DNA of 64,000 nucleotides from Chiloscyllium plagiosum (taxonomy: Eukaryota), in the NCBI RefSeq assembly GCF_004010195.1, contig NC_057719.1, positions 2,737,317-2,801,316 of the forward strand, read 5' to 3'. The position numbers and the translations under genes are program-made. Each line of letters starts with the position of its first letter. The stretch's first letter is position 1. Shown here piece by piece: positions 27,311 to 52,630 of this stretch. Below the pieces are notes generated by a model. The model ran no database searches and was not told the DNA's origin. It saw only the letters and a program-made list of their open reading frames with translations.

Positions 27311-30300
27311 GTCTTTTCACAGCAGGGAGCGGCGCGAGCTGGGCAGAAGTGAGGTTGGAGCGCAGAGCTGGTCGGGAAGGTAAGTGATTGATATATAAAA
27401 AACTTACCTTGACGCCAACGGTCTTTTCACAGCAGAGAGCGGCGTGAGCTGGGCGGAAGTGAGGTTGGAGCGCAGAGCTGGTCGGGAAGGTAAGTGATTG
27501 ATATATAAAGAACTTACCTCGACGCCAACGGTCTTTTCACAGCAGAGAGCGGCGCGAGCTGGGCGGAAGTGAGGTTGGAGCGCAGAGCTGGTCGGGAAGG
27601 TAAGTGATTGATATATAAAGAACTTACCTCGACACCAACGGTCTTTTCACAGTAGAGAGCGGCGCGAGCTGGGCGGAAGTGAGGTTGGAGCGCAGAGCTG
27701 GTCGGGAAGGTAAGTGATTGATATATAAAGAACTTACCTCGACGCCAACGGTCTTTTCACAACAGAGAGCGGCGCGAGCTGGGCGGAAGTGAGGTTGGAG
27801 CGCAGAGCTGGTCGGGAAGGTAAGTGATTGATATATAAAGAACTTACCTCGACGCCAACGGTCTTTTCACAACAGAGAGCGGCGCGAGCTGGGCGGAAGT
27901 GAGGTTGGAGCGCAGAGCTGGTCGGGAAGGTAAGTGATTGATATATAAAGAACTTACCTCGACGCCAACGGTCTTTTCACAACAGAGAGCGGCGCGAGCT
28001 GGGCGGAAGTGAGGTTGGAGCGCAGAGCTGGTCGGGAAGGTAAGTGATTGATATATAAAGAACTTACCTCGACGCCAACGGTCTTTTCACAACAGAGAGC
28101 GGCGCGAGCTGGGCGGAAGTGAGGTTGGAGCGCAGAGCTGGTCGGGAAGGTAAGTGATTGATATATAAAGAACTTACCTCGACGCCAACGGTCTTTTCAC
28201 AACAGAGAGCGGCGCGAGCTGGGCGGAAGTGAGGTTGGAGCGCAGAGCTGGTCGGGAAGGTAAGTGATTGATATATAAAGAACTTACCTCGACGCCAACG
28301 GTCTTTTCACAACAGAGAGCGGCGCGAGCTGGGCGGAAGTGAGGTTGGAGCGCAGAGCTGGTCGGGAAGGTAAGTGATTGATATATAAAGAACTTACCTC
28401 GACGCCAACGGTCTTTTCACAACAGAGAGCGGCGCGAGCTGGGCGGAAGTGAGGTTGGAGCGCAGAGCTGGTCGGGAAGGTAAGTGATTGATATATAAAG
28501 AACTTACCTCGACGCCAACGGTCTTTTCACAACAGAGAGCGGCGCGAGCTGGGCGGAAGTGAGGTTGGAGCGCAGAGCTGGTCGGGAAGGTAAGTGATTG
28601 ATATATAAAGAACTTACCTCGACGCCAACGGTCTTTTCACAACAGAGAGCGGCGCGAGCTGGGCGGAAGTGAGGTTGGAGCGCAGAGCTGGTCGGGAAGG
28701 TAAGTGATTGATATATAAAGAACTTACCTCGACGCCAACGGTCTTTTCACAACAGAGAGCGGCGCGAGCTGGGCGGAAGTGAGGTTGGAGCGCAGAGCTG
28801 GTCGGGAAGGTAAGTGATTGATATATAAAGAACTTACCTCGACGCCAACGGTCTTTTCACAACAGAGAGCGGCGCGAGCTGGGCGGAAGTGAGGTTGGAG
28901 CGCAGAGCTGGTCGGGAAGGTAAGTGATTGATATATAAAGAACTTACCTCGACGCCAACGGTCTTTTCACAACAGAGAGCGGCGCGAGCTGGGCGGAAGT
29001 GAGGTTGGAGCGCAGAGCTGGTCGGGAAGGTAAGTGATTGATATATAAAGAACTTACCTCGACGCCAACGGTCTTTTCACAACAGAGAGCGGCGCGAGCT
29101 GGGCGGAAGTGAGGTTGGAGCGCAGAGCTGGTCGGGAAGGTAAGTGATTGATATATAAAGAACTTACCTCGACGCCAACGGTCTTTTCACAACAGAGAGC
29201 GGCGCGAGCTGGGCGGAAGTGAGGTTGGAGCGCAGAGCTGGTCGGGAAGGTAAGTGATTGATATATAAAGAACTTACCTCGACGCCAACGGTCTTTTCAC
29301 AACAGAGAGCGGCGCGAGCTGGGCGGAAGTGAGGTTGGAGCGCAGAGCTGGTCGGGAAGGTAAGTGATTGATATATAAAGAACTTACCTCGACGCCAACG
29401 GTCTTTTCACAACAGAGAGCGGCGCGAGCTGGGCGGAAGTGAGGTTGGAGCGCAGAGCTGGTCGGGAAGGTAAGTGATTGATATATAAAGAACTTACCTC
29501 GACGCCAACGGTCTTTTCACAACAGAGAGCGGCGCGAGCTGGGCGGAAGTGAGGTTGGAGCGCAGAGCTGGTCGGGAAGGTAAGTGATTGATATATAAAG
29601 AACTTACCTCGACGCCAACGGTCTTTTCACAACAGAGAGCGGCGCGAGCTGGGCGGAAGTGAGGTTGGAGCGCAGAGCTGGTCGGGAAGGTAAGTGATTG
29701 ATATATAAAGAACTTACCTCGACGCCAACGGTCTTTTCACAACAGAGAGCGGCGCGAGCTGGGCGGAAGTGAGGTTGGAGCGCAGAGCTGGTCGGGAAGG
29801 TAAGTGATTGATATATAAAGAACTTACCTCGACGCCAACGGTCTTTTCACAACAGAGAGCGGCGCGAGCTGGGCGGAAGTGAGGTTGGAGCGCAGAGCTG
29901 GTCGGGAAGGTAAGTGATTGATATATAAAGAACTTACCTCGACGCCAACGGTCTTTTCACAACAGAGAGCGGCGCGAGCTGGGCGGAAGTGAGGTTGGAG
30001 CGCAGAGCTGGTCGGGAAGGTAAGTGATTGATATATAAAGAACTTACCTCGACGCCAACGGTCTTTTCACAACAGAGAGCGGCGCGAGCTGGGCGGAAGT
30101 GAGGTTGGAGCGCAGAGCTGGTCGGGAAGGTAAGTGATTGATATATAAAGAACTTACCTCGACGCCAACGGTCTTTTCACAACAGAGAGCGGCGCGAGCT
30201 GGGCGGAAGTGAGGTTGGAGCGCAGAGCTGGTCGGGAAGGTAAGTGATTGATATATAAAGAACTTACCTCGACGCCAACGGTCTTTTCACAACAGAGAGC

Positions 30301-33122
30301 GGCGCGAGCTGGGCGGAAGTGAGGTTGGAGCGCAGAGCTGGTCGGGAAGGTAAGTGATTGATATATAAAGAACTTACCTCGACGCCAACGGTCTTTTCAC
30401 AACAGAGAGCGGCGCGAGCTGGGCGGAAGTGAGGTTGGAGCGCAGAGCTGGTCGGGAAGGTAAGTGATTGATATATAAAGAACTTACCTCGACGCCAACG
30501 GTCTTTTCACAACAGAGAGCGGCGCGAGCTGGGCGGAAGTGAGGTTGGAGCGCAGAGCTGGTCGGGAAGGTAAGTGATTGATATATAAAGAACTTACCTC
30601 GACGCCAACGGTCTTTTCACAACAGAGAGCGGCGCGAGCTGGGCGGAAGTGAGGTTGGAGCGCAGAGCTGGTCGGGAAGGTAAGTGATTGATATATAAAG
30701 AACTTACCTCGACGCCAACGGTCTTTTCACAACAGAGAGCGGCGCGAGCTGGGCGGAAGTGAGGTTGGAGCGCAGAGCTGGTCGGGAAGGTAAGTGATTG
30801 ATATATAAAGAACTTACCTCGACGCCAACGGTCTTTTCACAACAGAGAGCGGCGCGAGCTGGGCGGAAGTGAGGTTGGAGCGCAGAGCTGGTCGGGAAGG
30901 TAAGTGATTGATATATAAAGAACTTACCTCGACGCCAACGGTCTTTTCACAACAGAGAGCGGCGCGAGCTGGGCGGAAGTGAGGTTGGAGCGCAGAGCTG
31001 GTCGGGAAGGTAAGTGATTGATATATAAAGAACTTACCTCGACGCCAACGGTCTTTTCACAACAGAGAGCGGCGCGAGCTGGGCGGAAGTGAGGTTGGAG
31101 CGCAGAGCTGGTCGGGAAGGTAAGTGATTGATATATAAAGAACTTACCTCGACGCCAACGGTCTTTTCACAACAGAGAGCGGCGCGAGCTGGGCGGAAGT
31201 GAGGTTGGAGCGCAGAGCTGGTCGGGAAGGTAAGTGATTGATATATAAAGAACTTACCTCGACGCCAACGGTCTTTTCACAACAGAGAGCGGCGCGAGCT
31301 GGGCGGAAGTGAGGTTGGAGCGCAGAGCTGGTCGGGAAGGTAAGTGATTGATATATAAAGAACTTACCTCGACGCCAACGGTCTTTTCACAACAGAGAGC
31401 GGCGCGAGCTGGGCGGAAGTGAGGTTGGAGCGCAGAGCTGGTCGGGAAGGTAAGTGATTGATATATAAAGAACTTACCTCGACGCCAACGGTCTTTTCAC
31501 AACAGAGAGCGGCGCGAGCTGGGCGGAAGTGAGGTTGGAGCGCAGAGCTGGTCGGGAAGGTAAGTGATTGATATATAAAGAACTTACCTCGACGCCAACG
31601 GTCTTTTCACAACAGAGAGCGGCGCGAGCTGGGCGGAAGTGAGGTTGGAGCGCAGAGCTGGTCGGGAAGGTAAGTGATTGATATATAAAGAACTTACCTC
31701 GACGCCAACGGTCTTTTCACAACAGAGAGCGGCGCGAGCTGGGCGGAAGTGAGGTTGGAGCGCAGAGCTGGTCGGGAAGGTAAGTGATTGATATATAAAG
31801 AACTTACCTCGACGCCAACGGTCTTTTCACAACAGAGAGCGGCGCGAGCTGGGCGGAAGTGAGGTTGGAGCGCAGAGCTGGTCGGGAAGGTAAGTGATTG
31901 ATATATAAAGAACTTACCTCGACGCCAACGGTCTTTTCACAACAGAGAGCGGCGCGAGCTGGGCGGAAGTGAGGTTGGAGCGCAGAGCTGGTCGGGAAGG
32001 TAAGTGATTGATATATAAAGAACTTACCTCGACGCCAACGGTCTTTTCACAACAGAGAGCGGCGCGAGCTGGGCGGAAGTGAGGTTGGAGCGCAGAGCTG
32101 GTCGGGAAGGTAAGTGATTGATATATAAAGAACTTACCTCGACGCCAACGGTCTTTTCACAACAGAGAGCGGCGCGAGCTGGGCGGAAGTGAGGTTGGAG
32201 CGCAGAGCTGGTCGGGAAGGTAAGTGATTGATATATAAAGAACTTACCTCGACGCCAACGGTCTTTTCACAACAGAGAGCGGCGCGAGCTGGGCGGAAGT
32301 GAGGTTGGAGCGCAGAGCTGGTCGGGAAGGTAAGTGATTGATATATAAAGAACTTACCTCGACGCCAACGGTCTTTTCACAACAGAGAGCGGCGCGAGCT
32401 GGGCGGAAGTGAGGTTGGAGCGCAGAGCTGGTCGGGAAGGTAAGTGATTGATATATAAAGAACTTACCTCGACGCCAACGGTCTTTTCACAACAGAGAGC
32501 GGCGCGAGCTGGGCGGAAGTGAGGTTGGAGCGCAGAGCTGGTCGGGAAGGTAAGTGATTGATATATAAAGAACTTACCTCGACGCCAACGGTCTTTTCAC
32601 AACAGAGAGCGGCGCGAGCTGGGCGGAAGTGAGGTTGGAGCGCAGAGCTGGTCGGGAAGGTAAGTGATTGATATATAAAGAACTTACCTCGACGCCAACG
32701 GTCTTTTCACAACAGAGAGCGGCGCGAGCTGGGCGGAAGTGAGGTTGGAGCGCAGAGCTGGTCGGGAAGGTAAGTGATTGATATATAAAGAACTTACCTC
32801 GACGCCAACGGTCTTTTCACAACAGAGAGCGGCGCGAGCTGGGCGGAAGTGAGGTTGGAGCGCAGAGCTGGTCGGGAAGGTAAGTGATTGATATATAAAG
32901 AACTTACCTCGACGCCAACGGTCTTTTCACAACAGAGAGCGGCGCGAGCTGGGCGGAAGTGAGGTTGGAGCGCAGAGCTGGTCGGGAAGGTAAGTGATTG
33001 ATATATAAAGAACTTACCTCGACGCCAACGGTCTTTTCACAACAGAGAGCGGCGCGAGCTGGGCGGAAGTGAGGTTGGAGCGCAGAGCTGGTCGGGAAGG
33101 TAAGTGATTGATATATAAAGAA
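27311..33122 (+). repeat. Tandem array of about 52.8 x 110-bp CpG-rich units
   Basis: Unit gtcttttcacaacagagagcggcgcgagctgggcggaagtgaggttggagcgcagagctggtcgggaaggtaagtgattgatatataaagaacttacctcgacgccaacg. Copies 1-4 carry a few substitutions; later copies appear identical. Confidence 0.99.
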
Positions 33123-34029
33123 TCACACTTGCCATGTCACCATCACAATGACACATTCACACAGTCTGCTTCAGTGTCATCATGACACCTCAAACTCACT
33201 GCATCACTACCATCCTCCCCCTCATACTGACCTGTCACTATCATCCAGAGCCGCTCACACTTATTGCGTTCCTGTCACTCTGCTCCCAACACACTCACTG
33301 CGTCACTATCACCCTGTCCCCTCTCACTTCCTGCATTAGGATCACTCTGACTCACGGACACATACTGTGACACTATCAGCCTGACCCCACCACACTTGCT
33401 GCGTCTCTATCTGCATGACCCCCTCACACCTACGACTTCACTATCAGACTGACCGCTCACACTTACCGCATCCCTAACAGCCTGACACCTCACACTTACT
33501 GCGTCACTATTCCCCTAACACCTCACTTTAATTGGCCACTATCAGCCTGACGCTCTCAACTTATTGTGTCACTACCAGCCTGAACGCACACACTTACTCC
33601 CTCACTACCACCCCGACTGTCTCACACTCACTGCGTCAGTCTCCGCCTGACCCCATCATACTTACTGCGTCACTATCATCCTGTCCCCTCCCACTTTATG
33701 TTTCGGTATTAGGCTGACACAGTAATACTTACTGCATGACTATCAGCCTGATCTCCTTCCAATTACTGCGTCACTATCAGCCTGACAACTCACTCTTACT
33801 GCGTCACTGTCACACTGACCCCTCACACAAAGTGCTTCACTATCACCCTGACCACCTCACACTTACTGCATCACTATCGGTCCGTTCCCACAGACTTACT
33901 GCATCACTATCACTCTGACCCCCTCACTGCGCAACTATCGGCCTGATCCACTCACACATCTGCGTTACTACCACGCTGACACCTCACCCTCATTGTGTGA
34001 CTATCATCCTCACTGTCAGCCTGATCCCC
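33123..34029. repeat. Degenerate ~33-34-bp minisatellite
   Basis: Recurrent cactatcagcctgacccctcacacttactgcgt variants (e.g. at 33371, 33405, 33439). Confidence 0.9.
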
Positions 34030-34639
34030 TGTAATGGAAAACGATCGTTTATTATGAAATCTGTGAAAGCATGTTTGAAACAAAGAAGTATGGACCTAAC
34101 TTTGCAAAAAGACAGAAAAAATGTAAAGTTCGACCTATTTTACAGCTGACTCTCAAGGCCAATAATGTATTATATCAGCAGTCAATGAATTAGAAAAAGA
34201 AACTCCATGTGTGGAAAGGAACTCGACTGATCCAGGTTTCTGGCTTGAGATGTGATAAGGCAAGGCGTTATATAATATAAAGGGAATATGTGAAAACCGT
34301 CAGGCGTCCATTTTATGAGGCGTCTTGTAAATTTGTCGGGTAAACTCTGCAAATTTCAAAAATAAACTTTTTCTTTGCTCTTGGTAGCATTTGCGTTGAG
34401 TCGATTGAAATTCCACGGCAGGAAACTAGGGGGCTCGCCTGGGACCCTGCGACTTGGTAAGATTTTGAAGATTCCCAGGAAGTGTACCCGCCACTGCCTT
34501 TAAGGTCGTTCACTTCATCTCGAGCGCTGAATTGGTGTGAGAGGACTGGGGATAAGTGGATCGCCCCAGAGTCACGTTCCGAATCGAATAGGGTCGGGGT
34601 AAGCGTTGTGGCTAAAGTAATCCGCCATAGAGTGTTACA
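34030..34639 (+). mobile_element. LTR (about 34030-34420) + tRNA-Pro-like PBS + leader of an LTR element, truncated
   Basis: Starts TGTAA; TATA-like tataatataaa and AATAAA; ttccacggca is followed by agggggctcgcctggga (compare PBS-Pro TGGGGGCTCGTCCGGGA); homologous to 46369-46747. Confidence 0.75.
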
Positions 34640-34880
34640 AGGGGACATAAATGTAAGGTGAAGGGTGGAAGGTATAGGGGAGATGTCAGGGGTTGGTTCT
34701 TTACCCAGAGAGTGGTGGGGGCATGGAATGCGTTGCCTGTGGGAGTGGTAGAGTCAGAATCGTTGGTGACCTTTAAGCGGCAATTGGATCGGTACATGGA
34801 TGGGTGCTTAAGCTAGGACAAATGTTCGGAACAACATCGTGGGCCGAAGGGCCTGTTCTGTGCTGTATTGTTCTATTGTT
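34640..34880 (+). mobile_element. CR1 3' terminal fragment
   Basis: FFTQRVVGAWNALP motif, then gggccgaagggcctgttctgtgctgtattgttctat tail. Confidence 0.9.
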
Positions 34881-35379
34881 CTTGCAGTGATTTTGCTAGC
34901 ACTGTTAGGTAGACTTTAAACTAGTTTGGTAGGGGAATAGGAATCCAAGTTGAAAAGTGTAGTGCTGGAAAAGCACAGCCAGCCAGGCAGCATCCGAGGA
35001 GCAGGTGTGTCAACGTTTCCAGTGTAAGCTCTTCATCAGGAATAGGAATCTAAGGGAAAGCTCTGATTTAGCTAGAGTGGGTGACGGCTTAAGGGAAAAG
35101 AGAATCATGATAGTACATAAAAAGCAAGAAGCAATTGTTAGACTAAATGGGATGAGGGAGGAGTTGACTAAGGTAGACTGGGAGCAAAGACTATATGGTG
35201 AGACAACTGAGGAACAGAGGACGACTTTTAAAGCCATTTTTCACATTGCCCAGCAGAAGTACATACCAGTGAAAAGGAAGGACTGTAAGAAACGGGATAA
35301 TCAGCCATGGATAACAAAGGAAATAAATGAGGACATCAAAGATTTGTGGGAAACTAGACAATTGGGAAATCTTTACAGG

Positions 35380-36026
35380 AGTCATAAAGCTAGTCCCTTT
35401 TTTTCTAAAAGCTGTTCCTTGGCTCAAGGAGACTCTGTCCTTGACTTTTTTCAGAGGGGCAATAAACCAGGCCAGGCTCCAATCAGTCTGGTTTGTTAGA
35501 GAGATGAAAAGGATTTTGAGAAGCCTTTTGTTTATATGTAAACAGATGAGACTTCAGGCCAATGTGGTCATGTTTTAGACTTGAACTGGAAAATGAAAGG
35601 GGAGTGATCAGCTCTTTAGATGGGCTGAGCAGTTTCAGTTCAGTCTTGAACTGGGAAGTTTAATAGGGAGCTGTGTGGAAACGCTCTCTCTTTTCTGCCC
35701 TTCAACTTCAACCTGTAAGTATGTGTTCCATTTATACTGGTTTTTTTAAAAGGGAGTTTGCTTATTGGGATTGTTGTGTATATTTAGAACTGTATAATTA
35801 AATCTAGATGGATAGTTTGAGTTCAGCAGGGGTACTTTATTTTGTTCTTTGTGTTGCATTGTGTAATTTTGTGAATAAATTTTTGTCGGTTTTAAAATTG
35901 ATTAGTCAACCTAGCTATCTTACTGTGGGTAATTTTCACTGTACACTTACCGAAATAAATTGCAAAGTTATGGTCTGGTGCTGCCTGCTTAGGAATCTTT
36001 TGAGTGGTCTGGCCTAGTTCATAACA
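35380..36026 (+). mobile_element. Solo LTR of the Gmr1-like Gypsy family
   Basis: 647 bp, colinear with the LTR at 52662-53309; ends ataaCA; 4-bp TSD cagg (35376-35379, 36027-36030). Confidence 0.92.
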
Positions 36027-36316
36027 CAGGTCAACAGAAAGCCATGAGAAAAACTATGAGCTAAGACTGATTACGAGCGTAAACTAGCTCAAAATATAAA
36101 AACAGATAGCAGAAGTTTCTACAAATATATAAAATGAAAAAGAGTTTGCAAGATAAACAGTGGCCCTTTAGAGGATGAGAAGGGGTATTTAATAATGGGA
36201 AATGGCTGAGGCATTGAACAGAATTTCGTTGCTTTTCACAGTGGAAGACACAAATAACATGCCATGGTGAGGACTTAGAAATGGTCATTATTACTGAAGA
36301 GGTAGTGTTGGGCAAA

Positions 36317-36762
36317 CAAGGTGGCATGGTGGCTCAGTGGTTAGCACTGCTGCCTCACAGGGTCACAGACCCAGGTTTGATTCCCGCCTCGGGCAAGTGT
36401 CTATGTGGAGTTTGCAGACATCTTCACGTGTCTGCGAGGGTTTCCTCTGGGTGCTCCGCTTTTCTCCCACAATCCAAAGATGTGCAGGTCAGGTGAATTG
36501 GCCATGCTAAATTGCCCATACTGTTTAGGGATATGTAGGTTAGGTGCACCTAACCTACCTACATATCCCTAAACAGTATGGGCAATTTAGCATGACCAAT
36601 TCACCTAACCTGTTTCGGGATATGTAGGTTAGGTACATTAGTCAGGGGGTAATGTAGAGTAGGAGGGTAGGGGAATGGGTCCAGGTAGGTAACTCTTTGG
36701 AGGGTCAGCATGGATTTGTTGGGCCAAATGGCCTGCCTCCACATTGTAAGGACTCTATGATT
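36317..36762 (+). mobile_element. V-SINE (HE1-like) with an internal foldback duplication
   Basis: tRNA head tggctcagtggttagc (box A) and ggtttgattcc (box B); V-domain tgtggagtttgca...gggtttcctctgggtgctcc; CR1-like tail. Confidence 0.85.
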
Positions 36763-37070
36763 CTAATGGGCAAGTTTCCTAGCCATGATGGAATCCATCC
36801 CAGAATAATAAAAGAGATAGTGAAGGAAACAGCAAAGACTATCATTGTAATTTGCCAAAGTTTGCTGTACTCTGGGTGGGGGGTGGTTCCAGCTATTGTG
36901 ATACCACTGTGTGAAAAAGGAGATAGACAAAAGGCAGGTAACTACAGGCCCGTTAGCTAACTTTGAATAGGAAAGAAAATGCTTGAATCTATCATTAAGG
37001 AAGAAATAGTGAGACATCTGGATAGAAATTGTCCCAAGCGCAGGCACAGCATGGGTTCAGGAAAAGCAGA

Positions 37071-37155
37071 GCTGAAAATGTGTTGCTGGAAAAGCGCAGC
37101 AGGTCAGGCAGCATCCAAGGAACAGGAGAATCGACGTTTCGGGCATAAGCCCTTC
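37071..37155 (-). mobile_element. Mini PLE fragment with intact hammerhead core, inserted in CR1 RT
   Basis: 15-bp direct repeat ttcaggaaaagcaga (37056-37070, 37156-37170). Confidence 0.9.
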
Positions 37156-38014
37156 TTCAGGAAAAGCAGATTATGTTTCAATAATTTACTAGAATTCTTT
37201 GAGGACATTACAAGCGTGATGGACAACAAGGAAGTGGTGGATGTGATATATTTGGATTTCCACAATGCATTCAATAAGATGCCGTACAAAAGAGTACTGC
37301 ATAAGATAAAGGTGCATGGCATTACTGGTAATGTATTAGCATAGATAGAGGTTTGGTTAACAAACTGAAAGCAAAAAGTGGAGATAAATGGGTAGTTTTT
37401 TGGTTGGAGATCATTAGCTAGTGGTGTGCCTCAGGAATTAGGGACTGCAATTATTTGCAATTTACATAGATGATTTGCAGTTCAGGACCAAGTATCAAAA
37501 CAACGATGAGTGGTACAGCAAAGTGTGGAGAGGACACTGAAAGTCTGCAGAGGTGATATAGATACATTAAGTGAGTAGGCAAGGATCTGGCAGAAGGAGC
37601 ACAAAGCTGGTAAATGTGAGGTCATCCATTTTGGCAGGAATAACAGCAAAAAGGACTAGCCTGCTGCATAGGGATCTGGTGCCATTGTGCATGAATCACA
37701 AGAAGTTGGTTTGCAGGTGCAGCAGGTAATTAAGAAGGCAAATGGAAAATTGTCCTTCATTCCTAGAGGAATGGAATTTAAAAACAGGAAGGTTTTGCTC
37801 CAGTTATATAGGCTGCTGGTGAGGCCACACCTGTTATACTATGCACAGTTTTGGTTTCCTTACTTGAGAAAGAATGTGCTGGCATTGGAGGGGGTGCAAA
37901 GAAGGTTCACTCGGTCGATTCCAGAGTTGAGAGAGTTGGCTTATGAGGAGGGATTGAGTAAACAGGGACAATACTCATTGGAAATTAGAACAATGAGGGG
38001 GAACCTTATTGATT

Positions 38015-38316
38015 AGATAGTTTAGATTCCCTACAATGTGGAAACTGGCCCTTTGGTCCAACCAGTCCACACCGACCCTCCGAAGAGCAACCCACCCAGA
38101 CCCATTTCCCTCTGACTAATGCACCTAACATTATGGACAATTTAGCATGGCCAATTCACATGACCTGCACACCTTTGGACTGTTGGAGGAAACCGGAACA
38201 TCCGGTGAAAACCCACGCAGACACGGGGAGAATGTGCAAACTCCACACACAGTCACCCGAGGCTGGAATCAAACCTGGGAACCTGGTGCTGTGAGGCAGC
38301 AGTGCTAACCACTGAG
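38015..38316 (-). mobile_element. V-SINE (HE1-like)
   Basis: Reverse complement of ctcagtggttagcactgctgcctcacagc head and V-domain. Confidence 0.85.
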
Positions 38317-39509
38317 TGAATGGAATAGATAAAGCAGGGAGGTTGTTTCCACCGGTAGATGAAACTACAACCAGGGGTTCTGCCTCAAAATAAGAGGGAA
38401 CAGATTTAAGACTGAATTGAAGAGGAACTTCTTCTCCGAAAGGTTTGCGAATCTGTGGCCAGGGAAGTAGTTGAGGCTATCGTGTTTAACGTTTTTAAGG
38501 CAAAGATGGATAGATTTTTGAACAGTAAAGAAATTAAAGGTTTTGGTGAGCAGGTGGGTAAGTGGAGCTGAGTCCATGAAAAGATCAGCCATGATCTTGT
38601 TCAATGGCAGAGGAGGCTCACGAGGCCAGATGATCTACTCCTGCATTTATATATTCTTATGTCCAAAACTACAGGGCATAGGTTTAAGGTGAGGGAATAA
38701 AGATTTAAAAGGTATCTGAGGGGCAATCTTGTCACATAGAGGTTGGTGCCTATGTGCAATTAACTGCCAATGGAACTGACAGAGGCAAGTACAATTACAA
38801 CACTTAAAAAACATTTGAACAGGTACATGAATAGGAAAGGTTTAGAGAGATATAGGCCAAATGCAGGCAAATGGGACCAGTTCAGTTTAGGAAACTTGGT
38901 CAGCATGGACGAGTTGAACCAAAGGGCCTGTTTCCATGCTGTATGACTCCACTGAGATGGCTGGAAGGTAAGAAAAAAATCAGAAACTACAAGTGCAATA
39001 AAAATCAAGTCATCCTATGTGTAAGAGCAACAGTTGAAAATTACTCATTTCTTAAACATGTTTTTAACTGTTCAACAATGACTCACACTGCCAGTATCAG
39101 AACAACTTTTGATAATTCGCTGACGAGATGTCTGGGCATTGCTAGTTGGGCTAGCATGTATTGCCCATTCCTAGTTGCCCTTTAGAAAGTGGTAGTGAGC
39201 TGTCTTTTTGAACAGGTGCAGTCGCTGTGCTGTAGAAATTTCCAAGATTTTGCCCCAATAACACTGAAGGAATGGCAATATATTTGAATATATGTTATTA
39301 CAAGAAATAAAATTTCATTTACTTGAACTAATTGTCTTCAATGTATTTGTTCTGTGTTCTAGCATTTTGCCTTTTGAAAAGCACTTGCTAAACATGATAT
39401 TACCTGTAATGGAGATTCATATCATGGATCCTACTGACCATGGAAAGGAAGAGTGGGGTTTCAATGTACTTCTCAGCTTTTGAGCCTTGCAGGAAGTACA
39501 GCTGTATTC

Positions 39510-42480: not shown

Positions 42481-42663
42481 TCGAGAAAGCTTACTCATTG
42501 TACTCGTCTATCATCTTCCTCCACTCCTCTTCCTAGCTAATTTTACATACCTAAGTAAGCCAGCATCACTTTCTTGTACTTACAGATGACTCCTATCTTT
42601 ATACTTCTGTCTTAAAGGCCTTAACCATATTTCTTTCTCTTATAGAGTCATACAGATGTACAG

Positions 42664-42884
42664 GAGAAAGTGGGAATGCAGATGCTGGAGATCAGAGCTG
42701 AAAATGTGTTGCTGGAAAAGCGCAGCAGGTCAGGCAGCATCCAAGGAACAGGAGAATCGACGTTTCGGGCATGAGCCCTTCTTCAGGAATGTTTCCTGAA
42801 GAAGGGCTCATGCCCAAAACGTCAATTCTCCTGCCCTTGGATGCTGCCTGACCTGCTGCGTTTTTCCAGCAACACATTTTCAGC
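42664..42884. mobile_element. Palindromic mini PLE (two inverted terminal repeats) within a minus-strand CR1 3' end (about 42640-43295)
   Basis: About 94-bp arms at 42695-42789 and 42793-42886; TSD tcata(c/g)agatgtacag (42648-42663, 42885-42900). Confidence 0.92.
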
Positions 42885-44944
42885 TCATAGAGATGTACAG
42901 CATGGAAACAGACCCTTCGGTCCAATGTGTCCATGCTGACCAGATATCCCAACCCAATCTAGTCTCAATCTGCCAGCACCCGGCCCATATCCCTCCAAAC
43001 CCTTCCTATTCATATACCCATCCTCTTAAATGTTGCCCTTGTACAAGCCTCCACCACATCCTCTGGCAGCTCATTCCATACACGTACAACCCTCTGCGTG
43101 AAAAAGTTCCCCCCTAGGTCTCTTTTATATCTTTCCCCTCTCACCCTAAACCTATGCCCTCTAGTTCTGGACTTCCCGACCCCAGGAAAAATACTATTTA
43201 TCCTATCCATGCCCCTCATAATTTTGTAAACCTCTATAAGGTCACCCCTCAGCCTCCAGGGAAAACAGCCCCAGCCTGTTCAGCCTCTCCCTGTAGCTCA
43301 TTAAATAATGAACAAAACAAAATAGTGGCTTGGGAATACAACTTTTTCCAATCCAAACACGTGAAAAGTACACATAGAAAGCATTTTTAAAAAATCTAAC
43401 ATTATTCTTTCGAATTGCCAAGACAAGCACAATTATAGTATTTCTCCCAGTTCTTGGGATCCTTTCGGATTCACAACTTCAACACTGCTTGATCCTAACA
43501 ACCCTATTACAACTACACTCGAAAAAATAAAATTCCAGCTCTGAAGATCACTGGATTTGAAAACATTAACTTTGCTTTGTCTCTTTGGCGTTGCCAGATC
43601 TGCTGTGTTTCTCCAACCATTTCTGTTCTTCTTTCATAACCACACTCAGTCCTGGTCCAAATATGCCAAAATCTTGTTCTTAGTCCCATTTATTCAAGTG
43701 CTACTTCCCTGAACTTCTCTCTTACTGCAACATTTTCTTGTTCACAGGTTATTAAACTTAAGTAAAAGCCAGCCTTATAAATAAATTTACAATTTAATTG
43801 CCAATGTATCCAGTCCTTTAAATTTTGACCAGGTAAAGATATATAGTCTTCTAAAGCCTCGGGTCAGAATATAAGCTGGAACCCTAAGCTTGGCATTAAG
43901 ATACAATTGATAACATTTTATTTGTGATGGTGGCAGAAGCAGATTTCTGGGTGGTGGAAAGGGTAAGTATTGAGGACATGTAGGTGTCTTGCTGAATTAA
44001 AGCAGAACTTTAACAATAAATTTTAATTCTATTTTAAATCTTTAAGTCAGCAAATTAAGAAGCTCTGTCCCATGGATCCTGCCAGTAGGTCAACTGCAAA
44101 TCCTACACTTCATCTCATTCTCCATTTTGTATATATATTGCATGGCCTGAGGGATGGTATAGAAGGAGTTTAGATTTGTAGGACACTGTGTTCACTTTTG
44201 GGAAAGTAAAAAGGTGTTCAAAAGAGATGGAGTTCACCTGAGCATAAATTGAATTAATCTCCTGACTGTGAGATTAAATAGATCAGTGCAGAGTGGATTC
44301 AAATTTCTAAGGCAGGATGTGGGCTGACTAATCAGCCTAGTTTTGCAAGTACCAGAAATGGCAAAAGGGAAAGATGGGAAATTGGGTAAAAGAAGTGAGG
44401 GCAGGCTTGAGTGTTGACAGTGAATAAGGAAATGGTCACCTTCCAATAGGCAAGAAAGAGACACTTTGTATGTATGTAAATATGCTGAGTATCATGATTA
44501 AAATTGGAGAACTGGTAGCAGAAATATGACAAAGCAGCATGGACATAAATGTGATTCAAACCAGAACAGGACTGGATACATAACAACCCAGGCTATAAGG
44601 CTTTTAATAAACATAGAGTGGGTAGAAAGGCAGGAGGTGTAGCTGTCTTGGTCAAAGAGTATCATAATCCTTGAATGTGATACAGTTCTTACATTAGAAT
44701 CTCCATGGTTGCAGGTGAGAAACTGGGAAGAAATTAAAGAGAGCAATTGCAGGCAGATTATAAAAATCTGCAGGAGAAGTAGAGTTCTGATAGTTGGTGA
44801 TTTCAATTATTTAGGGTGGATTGGGAAAAAAGGTACAGTGTGGGGCCTGAAAGGGGAGAAATGCCTGCAATTTGTATGGTAGAGTTTTCTTGAACAGAAC
44901 ATTTCCAGTCCTACCAGGGAGGGACCTGTGCAAAATTTTTCGAC

Positions 44945-45680
44945 GGCTCTTCATTTTCTCTGGAGTCGGAGGAGTGACAACGAGGACCAGAGGCCGACAG
45001 GAAGATAAATTTAAAATACAAAAACTTACCTCAGGAGTTCAGCATTCATTTTTTTTTAGCAGCAGTTGGAGTGGGAGGAGCGACAGCAAGGACCAGAGGC
45101 CTGACAGGAAGATAAATTTAAAATATAAAAACTTACCTCGGGAGTTCAGTGTTCTTCATTTGTTCGGTGGCAGTTGGAGTGGGAGAAGCGACAGCAAGGA
45201 CCAGAGGCCCGACGGGAAGATAAATTTAAAATATAAAAACTTACCTCGGGAGTTCAGCGTTCTTCATTTGTTCGGTGGCAGTTGGAGTGGGAGGAGCGAC
45301 AGCAAGGGCCAGAGGCCTGACGGGAAGGTAAATTTAAAATATAAAAACTTACCTCGGGAGTTCAGTGTTCTTCATTTGTTCGGTGGCAGTTGGAGTGGGA
45401 GGAGCGACAGCAAGGACCAGAGGCCCGACGGGAAGATAAATTTAAAATATAAAAACTTACCTCGGGAGTTCAGTGTTCTTCATTTGTTCGGTGGCAGTTG
45501 GAGTGGGAGGAGCGACAGCAAGGACCAGAGGCCCGACGGGAAGATAAATTTAAAATATAAAAACTTACCTCGGGAGTTCAGCGTTCTTCATTTGTTCGGT
45601 GGCAGTTGGAGTGGGAGGAGCGACAGCAAGGGCCAGAGGCCTGACGGGGAGGTAAATTTAAAATATAAAAACTTACCTTG
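44945..45680 (+). repeat. 7 x 108-bp tandem monomers forming the 5' end of a CR1 LINE
   Basis: acttacct at 45024, 45131, 45239, 45347, 45455, 45563 and 45671; followed after about 230 bp by CR1 ORF1 (KIRAVECSSCRMWE). Confidence 0.92.
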
Positions 45681-46368
45681 TATAAAGGCAGAGCGCACAC
45701 TGAGCTCGAGTGGACACAGGACTGTTAGATAAGTGAGGCTTTATTTCTGGGTGGTTGCTTTACGTGAAACACTACTCAGGTAGGGTCTCCCATCCATCCT
45801 CCTCCTGAAACCAAAACAACAGGTTCTGTGTGCTGGATTGTTAAGGTGACTACTTCTTTAATTTTCATTTTAGTTTCTCAGTCATCTCTTCGGGTATTTA
45901 GAATCGTGGGAACGAAGATTAGGGCCGTTGAATGTTCATCCTGCAGAATGTGGGAGTTAAGGGTCACCAGAAATATCCCTGCTGACTGCATCTATGGGGG
46001 TGCACCCAACTCCAGCTCCTTGAACACCATGTTAGAGAACTGGAGCTAGATGAACTTTGGATCATTCGAAGACAGAGGGGTTAATTGAGAGGAGTTAGAG
46101 GGAGATAGTCACACCTCAGGTAAAAGGGTTACCATCAGGGGACAGAAAGGGAACTGGTAGGCAGTGCATGGATCCCCTCTGGCTGTTCTCCTCAACAACA
46201 AGTATACTGTTTTGGATACTGTTTGGGAGGGGTGACTTACCAGGGGTAAGTAATGGGGCACAGGTCTCTAGCACAGAGTCTGTCCCTGTTGCTCATAAGC
46301 GAAGGGGGAAGAGGAGCAGAGCAATTGTCAGTGGGGCCTCCATAGTTAGGGGGACAGTTCTGAGGGAA

Positions 46369-46747
46369 GGTAATGGAAAATTAACATTTATTGTGAAATC
46401 TGTAAAAGAATACTTTGCAAAGCATTGTAGACAGACAGAAAAAAATGCAAAGGTTAAACCGATAGTAAAGAATTACAAGGACAGTAAACTATCATATCAA
46501 CAGTCAAGGAATGACAAAAACAACTCCATATGTGGAAAGGAGCTCGAATGTTCCAAGCTCTTGGCCTTGAGGTGTGATAAGGATAAGCAAAGTTTAGTAT
46601 AAAGAGAGTATGTGAAAGTCGTAAGGCACCCTTTACATGAGGTGTTTTGCCAAATGTACTAGGTCGACTGTGCAGAGTCGGAAATAAACTTTTTCTTTGC
46701 TCTTGCGAGCATTTGAGTCAAGTCGATTTAATTTCCACGACAGAAAC
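46369..46747 (+). mobile_element. Solo LTR (same family as 34030) inserted in CR1 ORF1
   Basis: Colinear with 34030-34427; CR1 esterase sequence resumes at cacggttggtgtgttgcc; TSD not clean. Confidence 0.8.
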
Positions 46748-47116
46748 TCACGGTTGGTGTGTTGCCCCCCCAGGTGCAGGATTCATGATGTCTCGGATTG
46801 TGTTTTCAGGATCTTTGAGGGAGAGGGGAAGGGGGAGGGGTAGCAACCCCAAGTAGTGGTCCACATAGGCACTAACGACATAGGTAGGAAGAGAGATGGG
46901 GATTTAAGGCAGAAATTCAGGGAGCTAGGGTTGGAACTTAGAGCTAGAACAAACAGAGTTGTTATCTCTGGCGTGTTACCTTGCCACATGCTAGTGAGGC
47001 GAGGAATAGGGAGACAGAGGAGTTGAACACGTGGCTACAGGGATAGTGCAGGAGGGAGAGTTTTGGATGCATGGGTTGGTATCTGGGATTTCGATGTTGT
47101 GGTCATTTCGGAGACA

Positions 47117-48172
47117 TGATTCGGAGATGCCGTGCCCGGAGGCATGGTACATTAGGGAAACCAAGCAAAGGCCATGACAACGGATGAATGGGCACCGCAC
47201 AATAATCAATAGACAGGAGGGTTCCCTCCCAGTTGGGGAACACTTCAGTGGTCCAGGACATTCAGCCTCAGACCTTCGGGTGACCATCATCCAAGGTGGA
47301 TTTCGGGACAGGCAGCAGAGGAAAGTGGCTGAGCAGAGGCTGATAACTAAGTTCGGTACCCATAGGGAGGGCCTCAACCGGGACTTTGGGTTCATGTCAC
47401 ATTACAGGTGATCACCAATACACTACACACACACACACAGATATTCCTACACACAGACATTCTCACATACACACGGACACAGGTACACACAGACGCGCAC
47501 ACAGACACCCACACACACCCTTATAGACACACACACTCCCACACTCTCACATGCACCCTCTCACAGACTGAAGACACTCTGCACTCACTACACACATACA
47601 CACACTTTCTCACACTCACAACCCCCACCCCAGACAGACACACACACAGACAGACAAAGACCCACATGCACACATATCTTTTGTGTGGTGAATTTTTTTG
47701 TACTTGCAGAGTTACATTGCACTTTGCTCAAAAACTGCATACATTCATGTAGAACTCTGAGCTCAAAAACTGCATGAATTTATGTAAAACTCTGTTATCT
47801 CACTTTTTAGATTAGAATCAATCTAAACATCAGGTCATAGACAGAGAACACAGGGGGCTAACACCTTCAACATATTGTCTAGCTATCACCATTGTCAACA
47901 GCTAACCCGAGAATGCAACTTTAAAAAAAAGGCTTTTGCGATTTACACATGAAAGAAGCGAAACTATCACTGTCGTCTAACAGATGAAAGGCTTAACAGA
48001 CAATCAATTTTTCAATGTATAATTTCAGTTACACCACACTGCAAATTTTTGCTATAAATTCTGTGTTACGATCGAGCCCTCCACAATCACCTGATGAAGG
48101 AGCGTCGCTCCGAAAGCTAGTGTGCTTCCAATTAAACCTGTTGGACTATAACCTGGTGTTGTGTGATTTTTA
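47117..48172 (+). mobile_element. PLE 3' portion (same family as 15305-16699)
   Basis: TSD atttcggagaca (47105-47116, 48173-48184); RMNGHRTIINRQEGSLPVGEHFS...GLNRDFGFMSHYR. Confidence 0.92.
48088..48122 (+). ncRNA. Minimal type I hammerhead ribozyme motif, intact core
   Basis: CAC-CUGAUGA-A-GGAGC GUC GCUCC-GAAA-GC-UA-GUG: conserved core, perfect stem II, palindromic mini stem III, stem I CAC/GUG. Confidence 0.8.
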
Positions 48173-50503
48173 ATTTCGGAGACAGGAATAGAGCAGGGGC
48201 AGGAATGATTATTACAAGTTCCAGGATTTAGGTGTTTCAGTAAGAACAGAGAAGACGGTAAGTTGGGGGGGGGGTTTCCAAATATTGACTGGGAATACTA
48301 TAGTTCAAGTACTTTGGATGGGTTGGTTTTTATTCAATGTGTGCAGGAGGGTTTTCTGTCACAGTATATCGACAAGTCAACAAGGGGCAAGCCTGCATTA
48401 GATTTGATAGTGGGTAATGAACCCGGCTAGCTGTTAGATTTGGAGGTGGGTGAGCATTTTGGTGACAGTGACCACAATTCGGTTATGTATACTTTAGTGA
48501 TGGAAAGGGATAGGCATATACCGCAGGGCAAAGGTTATAGCTGGGGGAAAGGCAATTATTATGTGATTAAGCAAGACTTAGGATACATAGTGTAGGGAAG
48601 GAGACTGCAGGAATTGGGCACAATTGAAATGTGTCACTTATTCAAGGAACAGCTACTGCAATTCTTGGTAAGTATGTACCTGTCAGGCAGGGAGGAAGGT
48701 GTTGAGCCTTGGTTTACTAAGGAAGCTGAATCTCTTGTCAAGAGGAAGAAGAAGGCTTGTGTTAGGATGAGATGTGATGGCTCAGTTGGGCCAGTTGAGA
48801 GTTACAAGTTAGTCAGGAAAGACCTAAAGAGAGAGCTAAGAAGAGCCAGGTGAGGACATGAGAAATTGTTGGCCGATAGGATCAAGGAAAACCCTAAAAC
48901 TTTCTATAGGTATATCATGAATAAAAGAATGACTAGAGTAAGATTAGGGACAATCAAGAATAGTAGTGGGAAGTTGTGCGTGGAATCCGAGGAAGTGGGG
49001 AAGCGCTAAATGAATAAGTTTTATCAGTATACACACTAGTAAAAGACAATGTCGTCGAGGAGAATACTGAGATACAGGCTACTAGACTAGACAAGATTAA
49101 GGTTCACTAGGAAAAGGTGTTAACAATTCTGAAAAGTGTAAAAATAGCTAAGTCCCCTGGGCCAGATAGGATTTATCCGAGGGTTCTCTGGGAAGCCAGG
49201 GAGGAGATTGCAGAGCCTTTGACATTGATCTTTATGTCATCATTGTCTACAGGAATAGTGTCAGAAGACTGGAGGATAGCAAATGTTGTTCCCTTGTTCA
49301 AGAAGGGGAGTAGAGACAATTCTAGTAATTATGCACCAGTGAGCCTTACTTTGGTTGTGGGTAAAGAGTTGGAAAGGGTGAGAAGAGATAGGACTTATAA
49401 TCATCGAGAAAGGAATAAGTTGATTGGGGATAGTCAACATGGTTTTGTGAAGGGTAGGTCATGCCTCACAAACCTTATTTGAGAAGGTGACCAAACAGGT
49501 GGATGAGGATCAATCAGTTGATGTGGTGTATCAGGATTTTAGTAAGGTGTTTGATAAGGTTCCCCACGGTAGGCTATCGCACAGAATATGGAGGCAAGGG
49601 ATTGAGAGTGACTTAGCGGTTTGGATCAGAAATTGACTAGCTGAAAGAAGACAGAGAGTGGTGGTTGATGGGAAATATTCACCCTGGAGTTCAGTTACTA
49701 GTGGTGTACTGCAAGGATCTGTTTTGGGTCCACTGATGTTTGTCATTTTTATAAATGACATAGACGAGGGCATAGAAAGATGGGTTAGTAAATTTGCAGA
49801 TGACACTAAGGTCGGTAGAGTTGTGGACACTAACGAAGAATATTGTAGGTTACAGAGGGACAAGGATAAGCTGCAAAGCTGGGCTGAGAGGTGGCAAATG
49901 AAGTTTCATGTGGAAAAGTGTGAGGTGATTCACTTTGGAAGGAGTAACAACAATGCAGGGTACTGGGCTAATGGTAACATTATTGGGAGTGCAGATGAGC
50001 AGAGGGATCTCGATATCCAAGTTCATAGCTCCTTGAAAGTTGCCACCCAGGTTGATAAGGTTGCTAAGAAGGCATATGGTGTGTTAGCTTTTATTGCTAG
50101 AGGGATCTTTTCCAGAACGATGAGGTCATGTTGCAGCTGTACAAAACTCCGGGTACTGCATACAGTTCTGGTCATCACATTACAGGAAGAATGTGGAAGC
50201 TTTGGAAAGGGTTCAGGAGATTTACTAGGTTGTTGCTTAGTATGGAGATAAAGTCTTAAATGAAAGGCTGAGGGACTTGAGGCTGTTTTTGTTAGAGAGT
50301 AGAAGGTTGAGAGGTGACTTAATTGAGACATACAAGATAATCAGAGGGTTAGATAAAGTGGACAGTGAAAACCTTTTTCCTCGGATGGTGATGAGGATAT
50401 AATTTTAAATTGAGGGGTGATAGATATAGAACAGATCTTAGAGGTAGTTTCCTTATTCAGAGAGAAGTAATAGAAGCATGGAACACACTGCCTGCAACAG
50501 CAG

Positions 50504-52200
50504 AGGTAAAAACAATGACTGCAGCTGCTGGAAACCAGATTCTGGATCAGTGGTGCTGGAAGAGCACAGCAGTTCAGGCAGCATCCGACGAGCAGCAAAA
50601 TCGACTTTCGGGCAAAAGCCCTTCATCAGGAATAAAGGCAGAGAGCCTGAAGCGTGGAGAGATAAGCTAGAGGAGATAAGCTAGAGGAGTGGGGAGAAAG
50701 TAGCATAGAGTACAATAGGTGAGTGGGGGAGGAGATGAAGATGATAGGTCAGGGAGGAGAGGGTGGAGTGGATAGGTGGAAAAGGAGCTAGGCAGGTCGG
50801 ACAAGTCCGGACAAGTCAAGGGGACANNNNNNNNNNNNNNNNNNNNNNNNNNNNNNNNNNNNNNNNNNNNNNNNNNNNNNNNNNNNNNNNNNNNNNNNNN
50901 NNNNNNNNNNNNNNNNNNNNNNNNNNNNTCCCACAGCTACCTGGCTTACACCTCTTCCCACCCTACCTCTTGCAAAAATGCCATCCCGTATTCCCAATTC
51001 CTCCGCCTCTGCCGTATCTGCTCCCAGGAGGAGCGGTTCCACCATAGAACACACCAGATGGCCTCCTTCTTTAGAGACCGCAGTTTCCCTTCCCACGTGG
51101 TTAAAGATGCCCTCCAACGCATCTCATCCACATCCCGACCTCCGCCCTCAGACCCAACCCCTCCAACCGCAACAAGGACAGAACGCCCCTGGGGCTCACC
51201 TTCCACCCTACCCACCTTCGCATAAACCAAATCATCCGCCGACATTTCCGCCACCTCCAAACAGACCCTACCACTGGGGATATATTTCCCTCCCCACCCC
51301 TTTCTGCCTTCCGCAAAGACCAATTCCTCCGTGACTACCTGGTCAGGTCCACGCCTCCCTACGACCCACCCTCCCATCCTGGCACTTTCCCCGGCCACTG
51401 CAGGGACTGTGAAACCTTTGCCCACACCTCCTCCCTCACCTCTATCCAAGTCCCTAAAGGAGCCTTCCACATCCATCAAAGTTTTACCTGCACATCCACT
51501 AATATCATTTATTGTATCCGTTGCTCCCGATGCGGTCTCCTCTACATTGGGGAGACTGGGCGCCTCCTAGCAGAGCGCTTTAAGAAACATCTCTGAGACC
51601 TGCACCAAGCAACCAAACCGCCCTGTGGCCCAACATTTCAACTCCCCCTCCCACTCTGCCGAGGACATGGAGGTCCTGGCCTTCCTTCACCACTGCTCTC
51701 TCACCACCAGACGCCTGGAGCCTCGCGGGAGCACGAGGTGGTGCCAATGCAGTCATTAATGTAGCAGAGGAAGAGGTGGGGAGTGGTGCCGGTGTAATTA
51801 CGGAAGATCAACTCCTACGTAGCCAACAAAGAGACAGGCATAGCTGGTACGTCTTCCGCCTTGGAACACTTCAACCCCAGGGCATCAATGTGGACTTCAA
51901 CAGCTTCCTCATTTCCCCTTCCCCCACCTCATCCTAGTTTCAAACTTTTAGCTCCGCACTGTCCCCTTGACTTGTCCGACCTGCCTAGCTCCTTTTCCAC
52001 CTATCCACTCCACCCTCTCCTCCCTGACCTATCACCTTCATCTCCTCCCCCACTCACCCATTGTACTTTATGCTACTTTCTCCCCACCCTCCTCTAGCTT
52101 ATCTTTCCACGCTTCAGGCTCTCTGCCTTTATTCCTGATGAAGGGCTTTTGCCCGAAACGTCGATTTTGCTGCTCGTCGGATGCTGCCTGAATTGCCATG
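50504..52200. mobile_element. PLE with inverted terminal repeat (minus 50504-50826; plus 50929-52195)
   Basis: TSD-like tgcaacagcag at about 50493 and 52203; SHPTSCKNAIPYSQFLRLCRICS; hammerheads at about 50597-50633 (-) and 52131-52168 (+). Confidence 0.9.
52131..52168 (+). ncRNA. Minimal type I hammerhead ribozyme motif, intact core
   Basis: AUUC-CUGAUGA-A-GGGC UUUU GCCC-GAAA-CG-UC-GAUU. Confidence 0.8.
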
Positions 52201-52449
52201 CTTGCAACAGCAGTAGACCTGCCAACTTTAAGGGCATTTAAGTTGTCATTGGATCAGCATTTGTACGAGAATGGAGTAGTGTAGGTTAGATGAGATTCAG
52301 ATTAGTTTCACAGGTCGGCGCAACATCGAAGGCCAGAGGGCCTGTACTGTGCTGTAATGTTCTATGTTCTGAGACGTGGCCCTCGGAAATAACGCAGGCC
52401 AAATGGAGAACGTCATGTGGGAGATCAGTTAGCAAAGTTGAACTGTTGC

Positions 52450-52630
52450 CGCAGTGGATGTGGTGAGAGCGAGGACCAGGGGGCTGCCATGAAGGTAAGT
52501 CTTCCTCTTAAAGACATATCTCGTGAATCAGCGGACTGCATTTGCAGCAGCAGCGGGACTGGTGACAGTGAGGACCAGGGGCTGCTGGTAAAGCAGGTCT
52601 TCCTCTTAAAGACTAACCTCATGAATAGGC
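52450..52630 (+). repeat. 2 x 99-bp degenerate monomers, probable CR1 5' UTR relic
   Basis: gaggaccagggg at 52471 and 52570; each followed by gtcttcctcttaaagac; shares gaggaccag and the donor hairpin with the 108-bp monomers. Confidence 0.65.

Follow-up and report, generated by a model that had tools for sequence, protein, structure and literature searches.

Tandem 5′ units of CR1-type LINEs in a shark genome carry a TATA-like box inside an ultra-short GT-AG intron

Results

Three unit arrays belong to CR1-type LINEs

We analysed a stretch of 64,000 nucleotides (nt) from the shark Chiloscyllium plagiosum (contig NC_057719.1, positions 2,737,317 to 2,801,316 of the forward strand; hereafter the window, to which all coordinates without a locus name refer), which holds three tandem arrays of 110-, 108- and 99-nt units. 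A preliminary description, made from the letters alone, had taken these arrays for multimerised 5′ units of CR1 long interspersed nuclear elements (LINEs), each unit with a covarying hairpin that pairs a splice donor with a U1-like anti-donor. Its positions for the three arrays were borne out on re-reading the sequence, and all three are 5′ units of CR1-type LINEs. The genome was searched with each unit and the dispersed copies were collected with their flanks; the association with CR1 5′ ends holds genome-wide, the copies being followed by a similar untranslated region (UTR) and first open reading frame (ORF1), and ORF1 lies downstream on the same strand at 25 of the first 30 motif loci. The pattern GGAAGGTRA-N12-28-CTTACCT returned 1418 matches genome-wide, a number inflated by tandem arrays, against 122 for the reversed pattern.

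A full-length copy of 4.8 kb (locus L068) comprises units, UTR, an esterase-type ORF1, an endonuclease and a short-repeat tail. One of its fragments matches PDB 4c1b, ‘ORF1-encoded protein’ (E 6e-8), its ORF1 matches the SGNH esterase domain Lipase_GDSL_2 at E 0.003, short of the Pfam cut-off, and the apurinic/apyrimidinic endonuclease domain PF14529 is found at E 2.7e-7. Its reverse transcriptase region is a gap of Ns; in the window, RVT_1 is found at 49637-50248 on the strand of the 108-family element. TTCTATG-type short repeats, with no poly(A), end L068, two further loci (L073, L076) and the young element of the window at 34882. The elements are labelled CR1-type, within the CR1/L2 group, from ORF1 layout and 3′ end, so that a place in CR1 rather than L2 is putative. 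Loops and exons differ widely between subfamilies, and the order of donor, AT-rich box, ACTTACCT, pyrimidine tract and YAG (Y, pyrimidine) is kept.

The 110-mer array counts 53 units, namely four variants followed by 47 consecutive identical full units and a cut last one, with one sequence common to 48 of the 53, and its end is abrupt. Its hairpin reads as first written, GTCG-GGA-AGGTAAGT, 16 nt, ACTTACCT-CGAC. The 108-mer array does lie directly upstream of a CR1 UTR and ORF1, as proposed; its donor is another matter, since five of its seven units carry AT instead of GT, and in these AGGTAAAT opposite ACTTACCT leaves an A.C mismatch. Units 3 and 6, and likewise 4 and 7, are one base apart, the trace of a recent 324-bp duplication (45066-45678). 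With the element itself about 17% diverged from its nearest relative, such near-identical units indicate that arrays can regrow in place. The pairing given for the 99-mer turned out to be a composite of two decayed units: unit 1 has the donor, but ACATATCT as the other arm, and unit 2 has ACTAACCT, but AAAGCAGGT replaces the donor. A lone decayed piece of a 99-type unit lies at 323-361 on the minus strand. Coordinates are collected in Table 1.

Table 1. Features of the window, with the unit arrays and their elements first
Feature	Position	Strand	Remark
110-nt 5′ unit array, young CR1-type LINE	27311..33122	+	first four units distinct, rest identical
Commonest first base of family copies, C/T of CTTTTCACAG	27313..27314	+	putative transcription start
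Example 110-mer GT-AG intron	27490..27545	+	53 nt (to 27542) or 56 nt (to 27545), tandem CAGCAG acceptors
TATA-like box TATATAAAG in hairpin loop	27502..27510	+	seen in sequence; putative function
ACTTACCT, branch-point-like, donor-complementary	27512..27519	+	candidate branch A 27516; minus-strand consensus donor
108-nt 5′ unit array, older CR1 family	44947..45678	+	7 units; recent 3-unit duplication
Example 108-mer GT-AG intron, 62 nt	45328..45389	+	TATAAAA 45340-45346, ACTTACCT 45347-45354
5′ UTR and decayed ORF1, 108-family element	45679..47058	+	ORF2 pieces then to about 50400
Two decayed units of third CR1 family and UTR start	52450..52662	+	later insertion separates them from ORF1
3′ end of young CR1 family	34629..34882	+	94% to L068
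Older CR1 ORF1, host of young-element insertion	26458..27310	+	74% to L068 esterase region
Unrelated high-copy repeat piece (33-mer array and ~600 bp)	33123..34632	.	at expected CR1-body place

Genomic retrocopies record precise splicing between units

The stretch from the donor of one unit to the AG of the next is a GT-AG intron. Counted from the GT of the donor up to the following YAG, it is 53 or 56 nt long in the 110-mer and 62 nt long in the 108-mer of the window; a subfamily with units of 106 nt has 49 nt. A search for joined exons in the 110 family found 11 exact junctions, only at gaps 0 and 3, which are the two AGs of CAGCAG, and none in the control. After merging of duplicates (a pair on C20; C93460 with C94730) the spliced copies amount to seven independent sites, one of them from a further search, and flanks were read for six. 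In the 108 family all 17 junctions, at five sites, use one AG and stand at gap 0 among the gaps 0-9 (control, again 0); the loci that carry them are CR1 5′ ends, each with between 2 and 8 junctions in a row. When the gap was left free (0-30 nt) and the anchors were moved inward, 4/4 deletions in the 110 family and 11/11 in the 108 family ended at splice sites. The splice donor of the preliminary description is thereby confirmed as real, through exact GT-AG junctions in genomic retrocopies of both families. A deletion by microhomology or a hairpin jump was rejected as the source of these joins: the two ends have no more than AG in common, and the missing stretch reaches 23-35 nt past the stem. 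These loci are retrocopies of spliced LINE RNA that lack promoter sequence, akin to the spliced integrated retrotransposed elements (SpIREs) of L1, in a host LINE that is not L1.

Precise intron removal was seen in two of the five families tried. The seven spliced sites compare with 180 exact unspliced last junctions (about 4%) or with 363 last units (about 2%), rates that are rough because the spliced and unspliced patterns differ in length. At nine of the 11 spliced sites read, a pyrimidine-AG stub of the intron is kept at the very 5′ end, as expected if the RNA starts inside the intron. Splicing to acceptors further down the element was found in none of 38 matches, in a search that misses exons with T as second base. 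The last 110 unit has a donor without partner arm, and a donor-like AGGTAAG or GGTAAGGTAAG stands in the UTR shortly upstream of ORF1 (L068:7040-7025; also the 99 and 108 families); no acceptor was found for either.

Trees were built on about 400 nt and dropped 4 and 7 rows, for gaps or want of an anchor. The five spliced 110 rows need four changes, two of them forced by strong branches, and spliced copies come from more than one lineage; a single clade of the 110 rows is not rejected by the approximately unbiased test (p-AU 0.23). In the 108 family, a weakly supported group (82/92) takes in four of the five spliced rows. Four loci (L254, L256, L260, L265) are CR1 copies that open with arrays of 3 to 9 spliced units of 46 nt and are weakly grouped; they are possibly a spliced lineage that kept moving, or the outcome of amplification after splicing.

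Many copies begin about 30 nt below the TATA-like box

Copy 5′ ends, scored at the most upstream unit of each locus, were used as a proxy for transcription starts. In the 110 family, with two duplicates dropped, the 5′ end of 25 out of 56 copies lies 14 or 15 nt past ACTTACCT, at two adjacent bases in the pyrimidine tract (binomial p 1e-28, the two positions having been picked post hoc), and in the 108 family 9/31 begin at one of three bases, +15 to +17. The first base is C or T, followed by pyrimidines. In both families these ends lie 29-31 nt below TATA(T)AAA, and the usual distance from TATA to start is about 30 nt. Such a focused start fits a TATA-type RNA polymerase II core promoter, strongly so in the 110 family, moderately in the 108 and weakly in the 99, and lends sequence-level support to the promoter-like role first proposed. 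The last unit of the 110 family stops short of its TATA. Among 38 young copies, 21 consist of one TATA-less unit (two loci were unparsed and one counted twice), an abundance expected if unit n fires into unit n+1.

RNA data were too thin to speak for either side: 60 reads of one run and none of another map to locus L168, and for the same locus 172 and 116 contigs came from runs presumed to be RNA. Of the two joints listed none falls at the intron, and starts do not pile up.

The 3′ arm resembles a branch point and complements the donor

ACTTAC within ACTTACCT matches the branch-point consensus (C/T)TNA(C/T) (PMC4463651); the A is nucleotide 27 of the intron, with 26 nt separating it from the AG. 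Across 57 internal units, most have the branch consensus 26-38 nt from YAG. In the human HNRNPH1 gene, intron 7 measures 56 nt; its donor and branch site are 27 nt apart (10.1101/784868) and its excision yields a lariat (PMC4463651), and this shared geometry suggests that the shark intron is short yet workable. The A of ACTTACCT would accordingly be a candidate for the branch A used in splicing. The preliminary description had remarked neither on this placing of the 3′ arm nor on the TATA-like loop, nor on the pyrimidine tract and AG that complete the intron.

The inverted pair AG/GTRAG…ACTTACCT is real. For the isolated stretch of the 110-mer the hairpin is the minimum-energy fold (-17.9 kcal/mol, z -2.1, with 6 of 200 shuffles as good); over a longer stretch the fold is not better than shuffles (z -0.5), the AT-bearing 108-mer unit shows no stability above shuffles (z +1.1), and neither 99-mer unit folds better than them. 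A pair between donor T+2 and the candidate branch A has P>0.5 in the predicted folds of 29 out of 33 young units.

The claim that the hairpin covaries was not confirmed: the commonest change, A at +5, is uncompensated, and the overall score is no higher than relatedness would produce. Of 128 units, 78 have A at left +5, with C opposite in 72 of them; part of the set came from patterns that fix this C, and with C left free about three quarters of the first 100 matches have it (by eye). Left +3 G faces T in 22/23, with a compensated C in one small family. That family, with CTCACCT against GGTGAG on the left, makes up, as judged by eye, roughly 5 of the first 100 matches, and one of 32 representatives. 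Cells changed on both sides exceed all shuffles (29 vs 15), mostly in pairs that some half of the rows leave unpaired or at CpG positions, and the core columns, fixed by the search patterns, are uninformative on covariation. Complementarity is conserved, then, and compensation is not.

The two arms also behave differently, the 5′ arm varying as a U2 donor does (GTAAG, GTGAG, GTAAA, GTGAA) and the 3′ arm staying fixed independently of it. Some complementarity between donor and branch consensus exists in any case; the T that fills the free N position and the CT that follows exceed it, which would fit either pairing or an antisense donor. A U1-derived origin of the arm was rejected by eye, the match to the U1 5′ end being confined to the 8-10 nt of the arm.

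The 53-unit count and the assembly

The count of 53 is probably inflated by assembly gap-filling that looped through the unit. At 27311-34882 the young element has its 3′ end and lacks UTR, ORF1 and ORF2, no CR1 UTR being found after the array in the window. The expected UTR is likewise missing in all six arrays of at least 10 units that were examined (the window, L056, L064, L071, L073, L076), two of which run straight into a CR1 3′ end, and at 5 of 20 loci an N gap of 3.6-7.0 kb, the size of the long arrays, directly follows a short array. In four DNA runs, in which the old flank matched without differences, loose contig ends lie on both sides of 33122; no bridge over this position was found among the contigs listed in these runs, a weak negative given that most contigs are unlisted. 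That the array is a real, satellite-like expansion, a matter of array length alone, seems somewhat doubtful to us: long arrays do occur at several places, the 108 array shows its recent 3-unit duplication and L076 a 6-unit periodicity, but the missing UTRs, the two direct joins to a 3′ end, the N gaps after short arrays and, weakly, the loose ends at 33122 speak for an artefact of assembly.

Neighbouring repeats

The young element sits in an older ORF1, which appears by eye to resume at 34883. The 33-mer repeat that occupies the place of its body consists of a degenerate array plus about 600 bp and is common on unplaced contigs and C8; an older piece lies at about 46371-46748 and other copies are at L269-L287. 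It joins the CR1 3′ end over a few shared bases, a junction bridged in one DNA run. A composite family of this repeat and the CR1 3′ end was rejected, as 0 of 19 other copies run on into CR1.

An LTR-like (long terminal repeat) sequence occurs at 52664-54405 and 35382-36026 (85% between both), followed by an ORF with a SCAN domain, and it is this insertion that separates the 99-mer element from its ORF1; we take it to be similar to the SCAN-bearing Gypsy elements. A match to DDE_Tnp_1_7, a piggyBac-like transposase family, lies at 55781-56446 on the minus strand. Elsewhere, L072:2844-3100 shows an internal inversion from units to UTR that resembles twin priming, and contigs of one run labelled as another organism also cover a unit with its intron. 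Self-cleaving ribozymes of the kinds known at LINE 5′ ends (HDV-like, hammerhead) were looked for with Rfam models; none matched at four loci (E up to 1), where only three sub-threshold microRNA matches appeared.

Discussion

A probable promoter core within a mostly retained intron

Given the observed location of the units, their intron boundaries, the spliced retrocopies and the 5′-end pile-up with its spacing, we consider it probable that the arrays are tandem TATA promoter units in which the promoter core lies inside an ultra-short, mostly retained intron. From the TATA of unit n, RNA polymerase II would begin some 30 nt further down, within the pyrimidine tract at the head of unit n+1. As unit n fires into its neighbour, each new copy would be one unit shorter than its parent, and arrays would have to regrow, presumably by tandem duplication. 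Because spliced RNA would have lost its TATA boxes, splicing would be kept rare (roughly 4% of multi-unit copies), with donor/branch pairing in the RNA likely part of what holds it down. The hairpin as a splicing brake is suggested by the folding model, the TATA function by motif and spacing, and the likeliest reason for keeping a donor at all would be U1-linked help to transcription.

Several observations pull the other way. The 5′-end pile-up is weak in the 99 family (3/31 at +15/16), and an extra G at copy 5′ ends, such as a cap would leave, shows no enrichment (5/18). Spliced junctions gave 0 matches in the 99-mer and two other families, with exact patterns that are insensitive on old copies. 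The grouped spliced 108 copies may be one event and may indicate that spliced elements still move, and a longer splice that skips units would leave the same junction as removal of a 53-62 nt intron. As for the brake, the donor/branch pairing is predicted in 20 of 47 units of the 108 family and 13 of 48 other, older and decayed, units. Among the 32 hand-picked representatives, the +5 pair is compensated in none and unpaired in 19, the named structure scored 0.160 in the covariation test against 0.136 shuffled (18/500), which is within relatedness, and the outer pair counts of 8:3:8:9 give a Fisher p of 0.25.

A more ambitious version of the promoter-intron reading, which we put forward as tentative and on balance doubtful, is that the unit locks itself: U1 site and intron would mimic an intron-bearing host gene, and the donor/branch pairing would keep the TATA in the RNA that is copied.

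Among the alternatives, the one that survives best, though we hold it unlikely, makes the arms transcription-factor sites at the DNA level that flank the TATA, so that splicing is a costly accident and the hairpin idle. It would explain why the 3′ arm is fixed regardless of its partner, why last units keep this arm with no acceptor downstream (C in 47/51) and why spliced copies are rare, and it has a precedent in L1, where a donor lies inside a RUNX3 site (PMC5860796). It does not account for a 5′ arm that varies as the U2 donor does, nor for a pyrimidine tract and YAG kept at branch-point distance from the 3′ arm across families.

The model of the preliminary description takes ACTTACCT for a U1-like anti-donor under selection for pairing in the RNA, and at once for the antisense donor of a bidirectional promoter; it is harder still to sustain, and we regard it as improbable. 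The lack of compensation at +5 goes against it, and it leaves the pyrimidine tract, the AG and the spliced copies unexplained; on its side, both variants of the arm read as consensus donors when reverse-complemented (AGGTAAGT, AGGTGAGT), one family has a compensated CTCACCT/GGTGAG pair, the young unit folds as drawn, and mouse L1 monomers show antisense peaks in cap analysis of gene expression (CAGE) (PMC6454616). Very improbable, finally, is a pile-up caused by reverse transcriptase stalling at the hairpin base or by T-run microhomology, with the TATA-like loop incidental: one predicted fold does reach the C where copies begin, several copies have extra Ts at the junction and many one-unit copies would be expected here too, but fully spliced copies, with no hairpin left upstream in the RNA, share the start position, 11/56 copies begin at the C, outside the T run, and families that differ in their offset from the 3′ arm (+14/15, +16/17) agree in a TATA distance of about 30.

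Comparison with known systems

The mouse L1Md monomers (A, G and T types) are tandem 5′ units of variable number, like those of the shark; copy 5′ ends cluster at one position of the unit and are read as the start, in that case checked with CAGE, and the promoter is maintained by duplication (PMC6454616). They differ in measuring about 200 nt, in belonging to the L1 clade and in starting over tens of bases near YY1/AP-1 sites, and the strings ‘TATA’ and ‘splic’ have 0 occurrences in the paper (PMC6454616). The shark units measure about 95-110 nt, start within two bases at TATA distance and contain an intron each.

Human SpIREs share with the shark loci the retrocopying of LINE RNA spliced in its 5′ UTR, with loss of promoter sequence, and a similar spliced share (about 2% of full-length L1s, vs 2-4% here); their authors speculate that the L1 donor is sequestered in a structure, which they leave unexplained (PMC5860796). 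There, one donor in a non-repeated UTR is joined to scattered acceptors over introns of hundreds of bases (PMC5860796). The shark has a complete donor/branch/acceptor set of 49-65 nt in every unit, in many subfamilies, with up to eight consecutive junctions. Retroelements with retained introns exist among the Penelope-like elements, and in Drosophila HeT-A and Dictyostelium TRE5-A an upstream or sacrificial tandem copy provides the promoter, ahead of the start; all of these belong to other clades.

The 5′ UTRs of chicken, turtle and pufferfish CR1 also have a promoter role and differ between subfamilies, with a 32-bp direct repeat in turtle and pufferfish; they differ in their E boxes, and neither a TATA nor an intron of their own is mentioned in the accessible text (PMC2734521). 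Human ultra-short introns resemble those of the shark in length (<66 nt), in 27 nt from donor to branch and in a short pyrimidine tract, yet are spliced introns of host genes, and the accessible text describes no promoter core in them and no donor/branch complementarity (PMC4463651; 10.1101/784868). Short tandem motifs are widespread in L1 5′ UTRs (PMC5381506), and a shark LINE, HER1, is listed in PMC3747384. Our search, with subscription papers and Repbase/Dfam entries outside its scope, turned up no LINE described as having its promoter core within a repeated intron. Provisionally, the combined layout, which unites features of mouse L1 monomers and human L1 SpIREs, is thus undescribed.

Implications

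The usual expectation for a LINE is that it has no intron and evades splicing. In this shark many subfamilies, with loops and exons that cannot be aligned, keep the order of donor, TATA-like box, branch sequence and acceptor, and genomic copies preserve a record of splicing. For users of the assembly there is a caution, as the long identical arrays of the 110-nt unit are probably not real. If the unit does lock itself, U1-aided transcription and an escape from the silencing of intronless elements would follow, and splicing would be a built-in switch between heritable and promoter-stripped progeny. Introns protect transgenes from silencing of the HUSH (human silencing hub) type (PMC10915761), and the question is raised whether a retained intron shields a retroelement likewise. 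The unit offers a test system of 110 nt for why LINEs keep donors in their 5′ UTRs, for the way in which the promoter grows back in a LINE whose TATA lies upstream, and for how introns of 49-62 nt are handled in a vertebrate.

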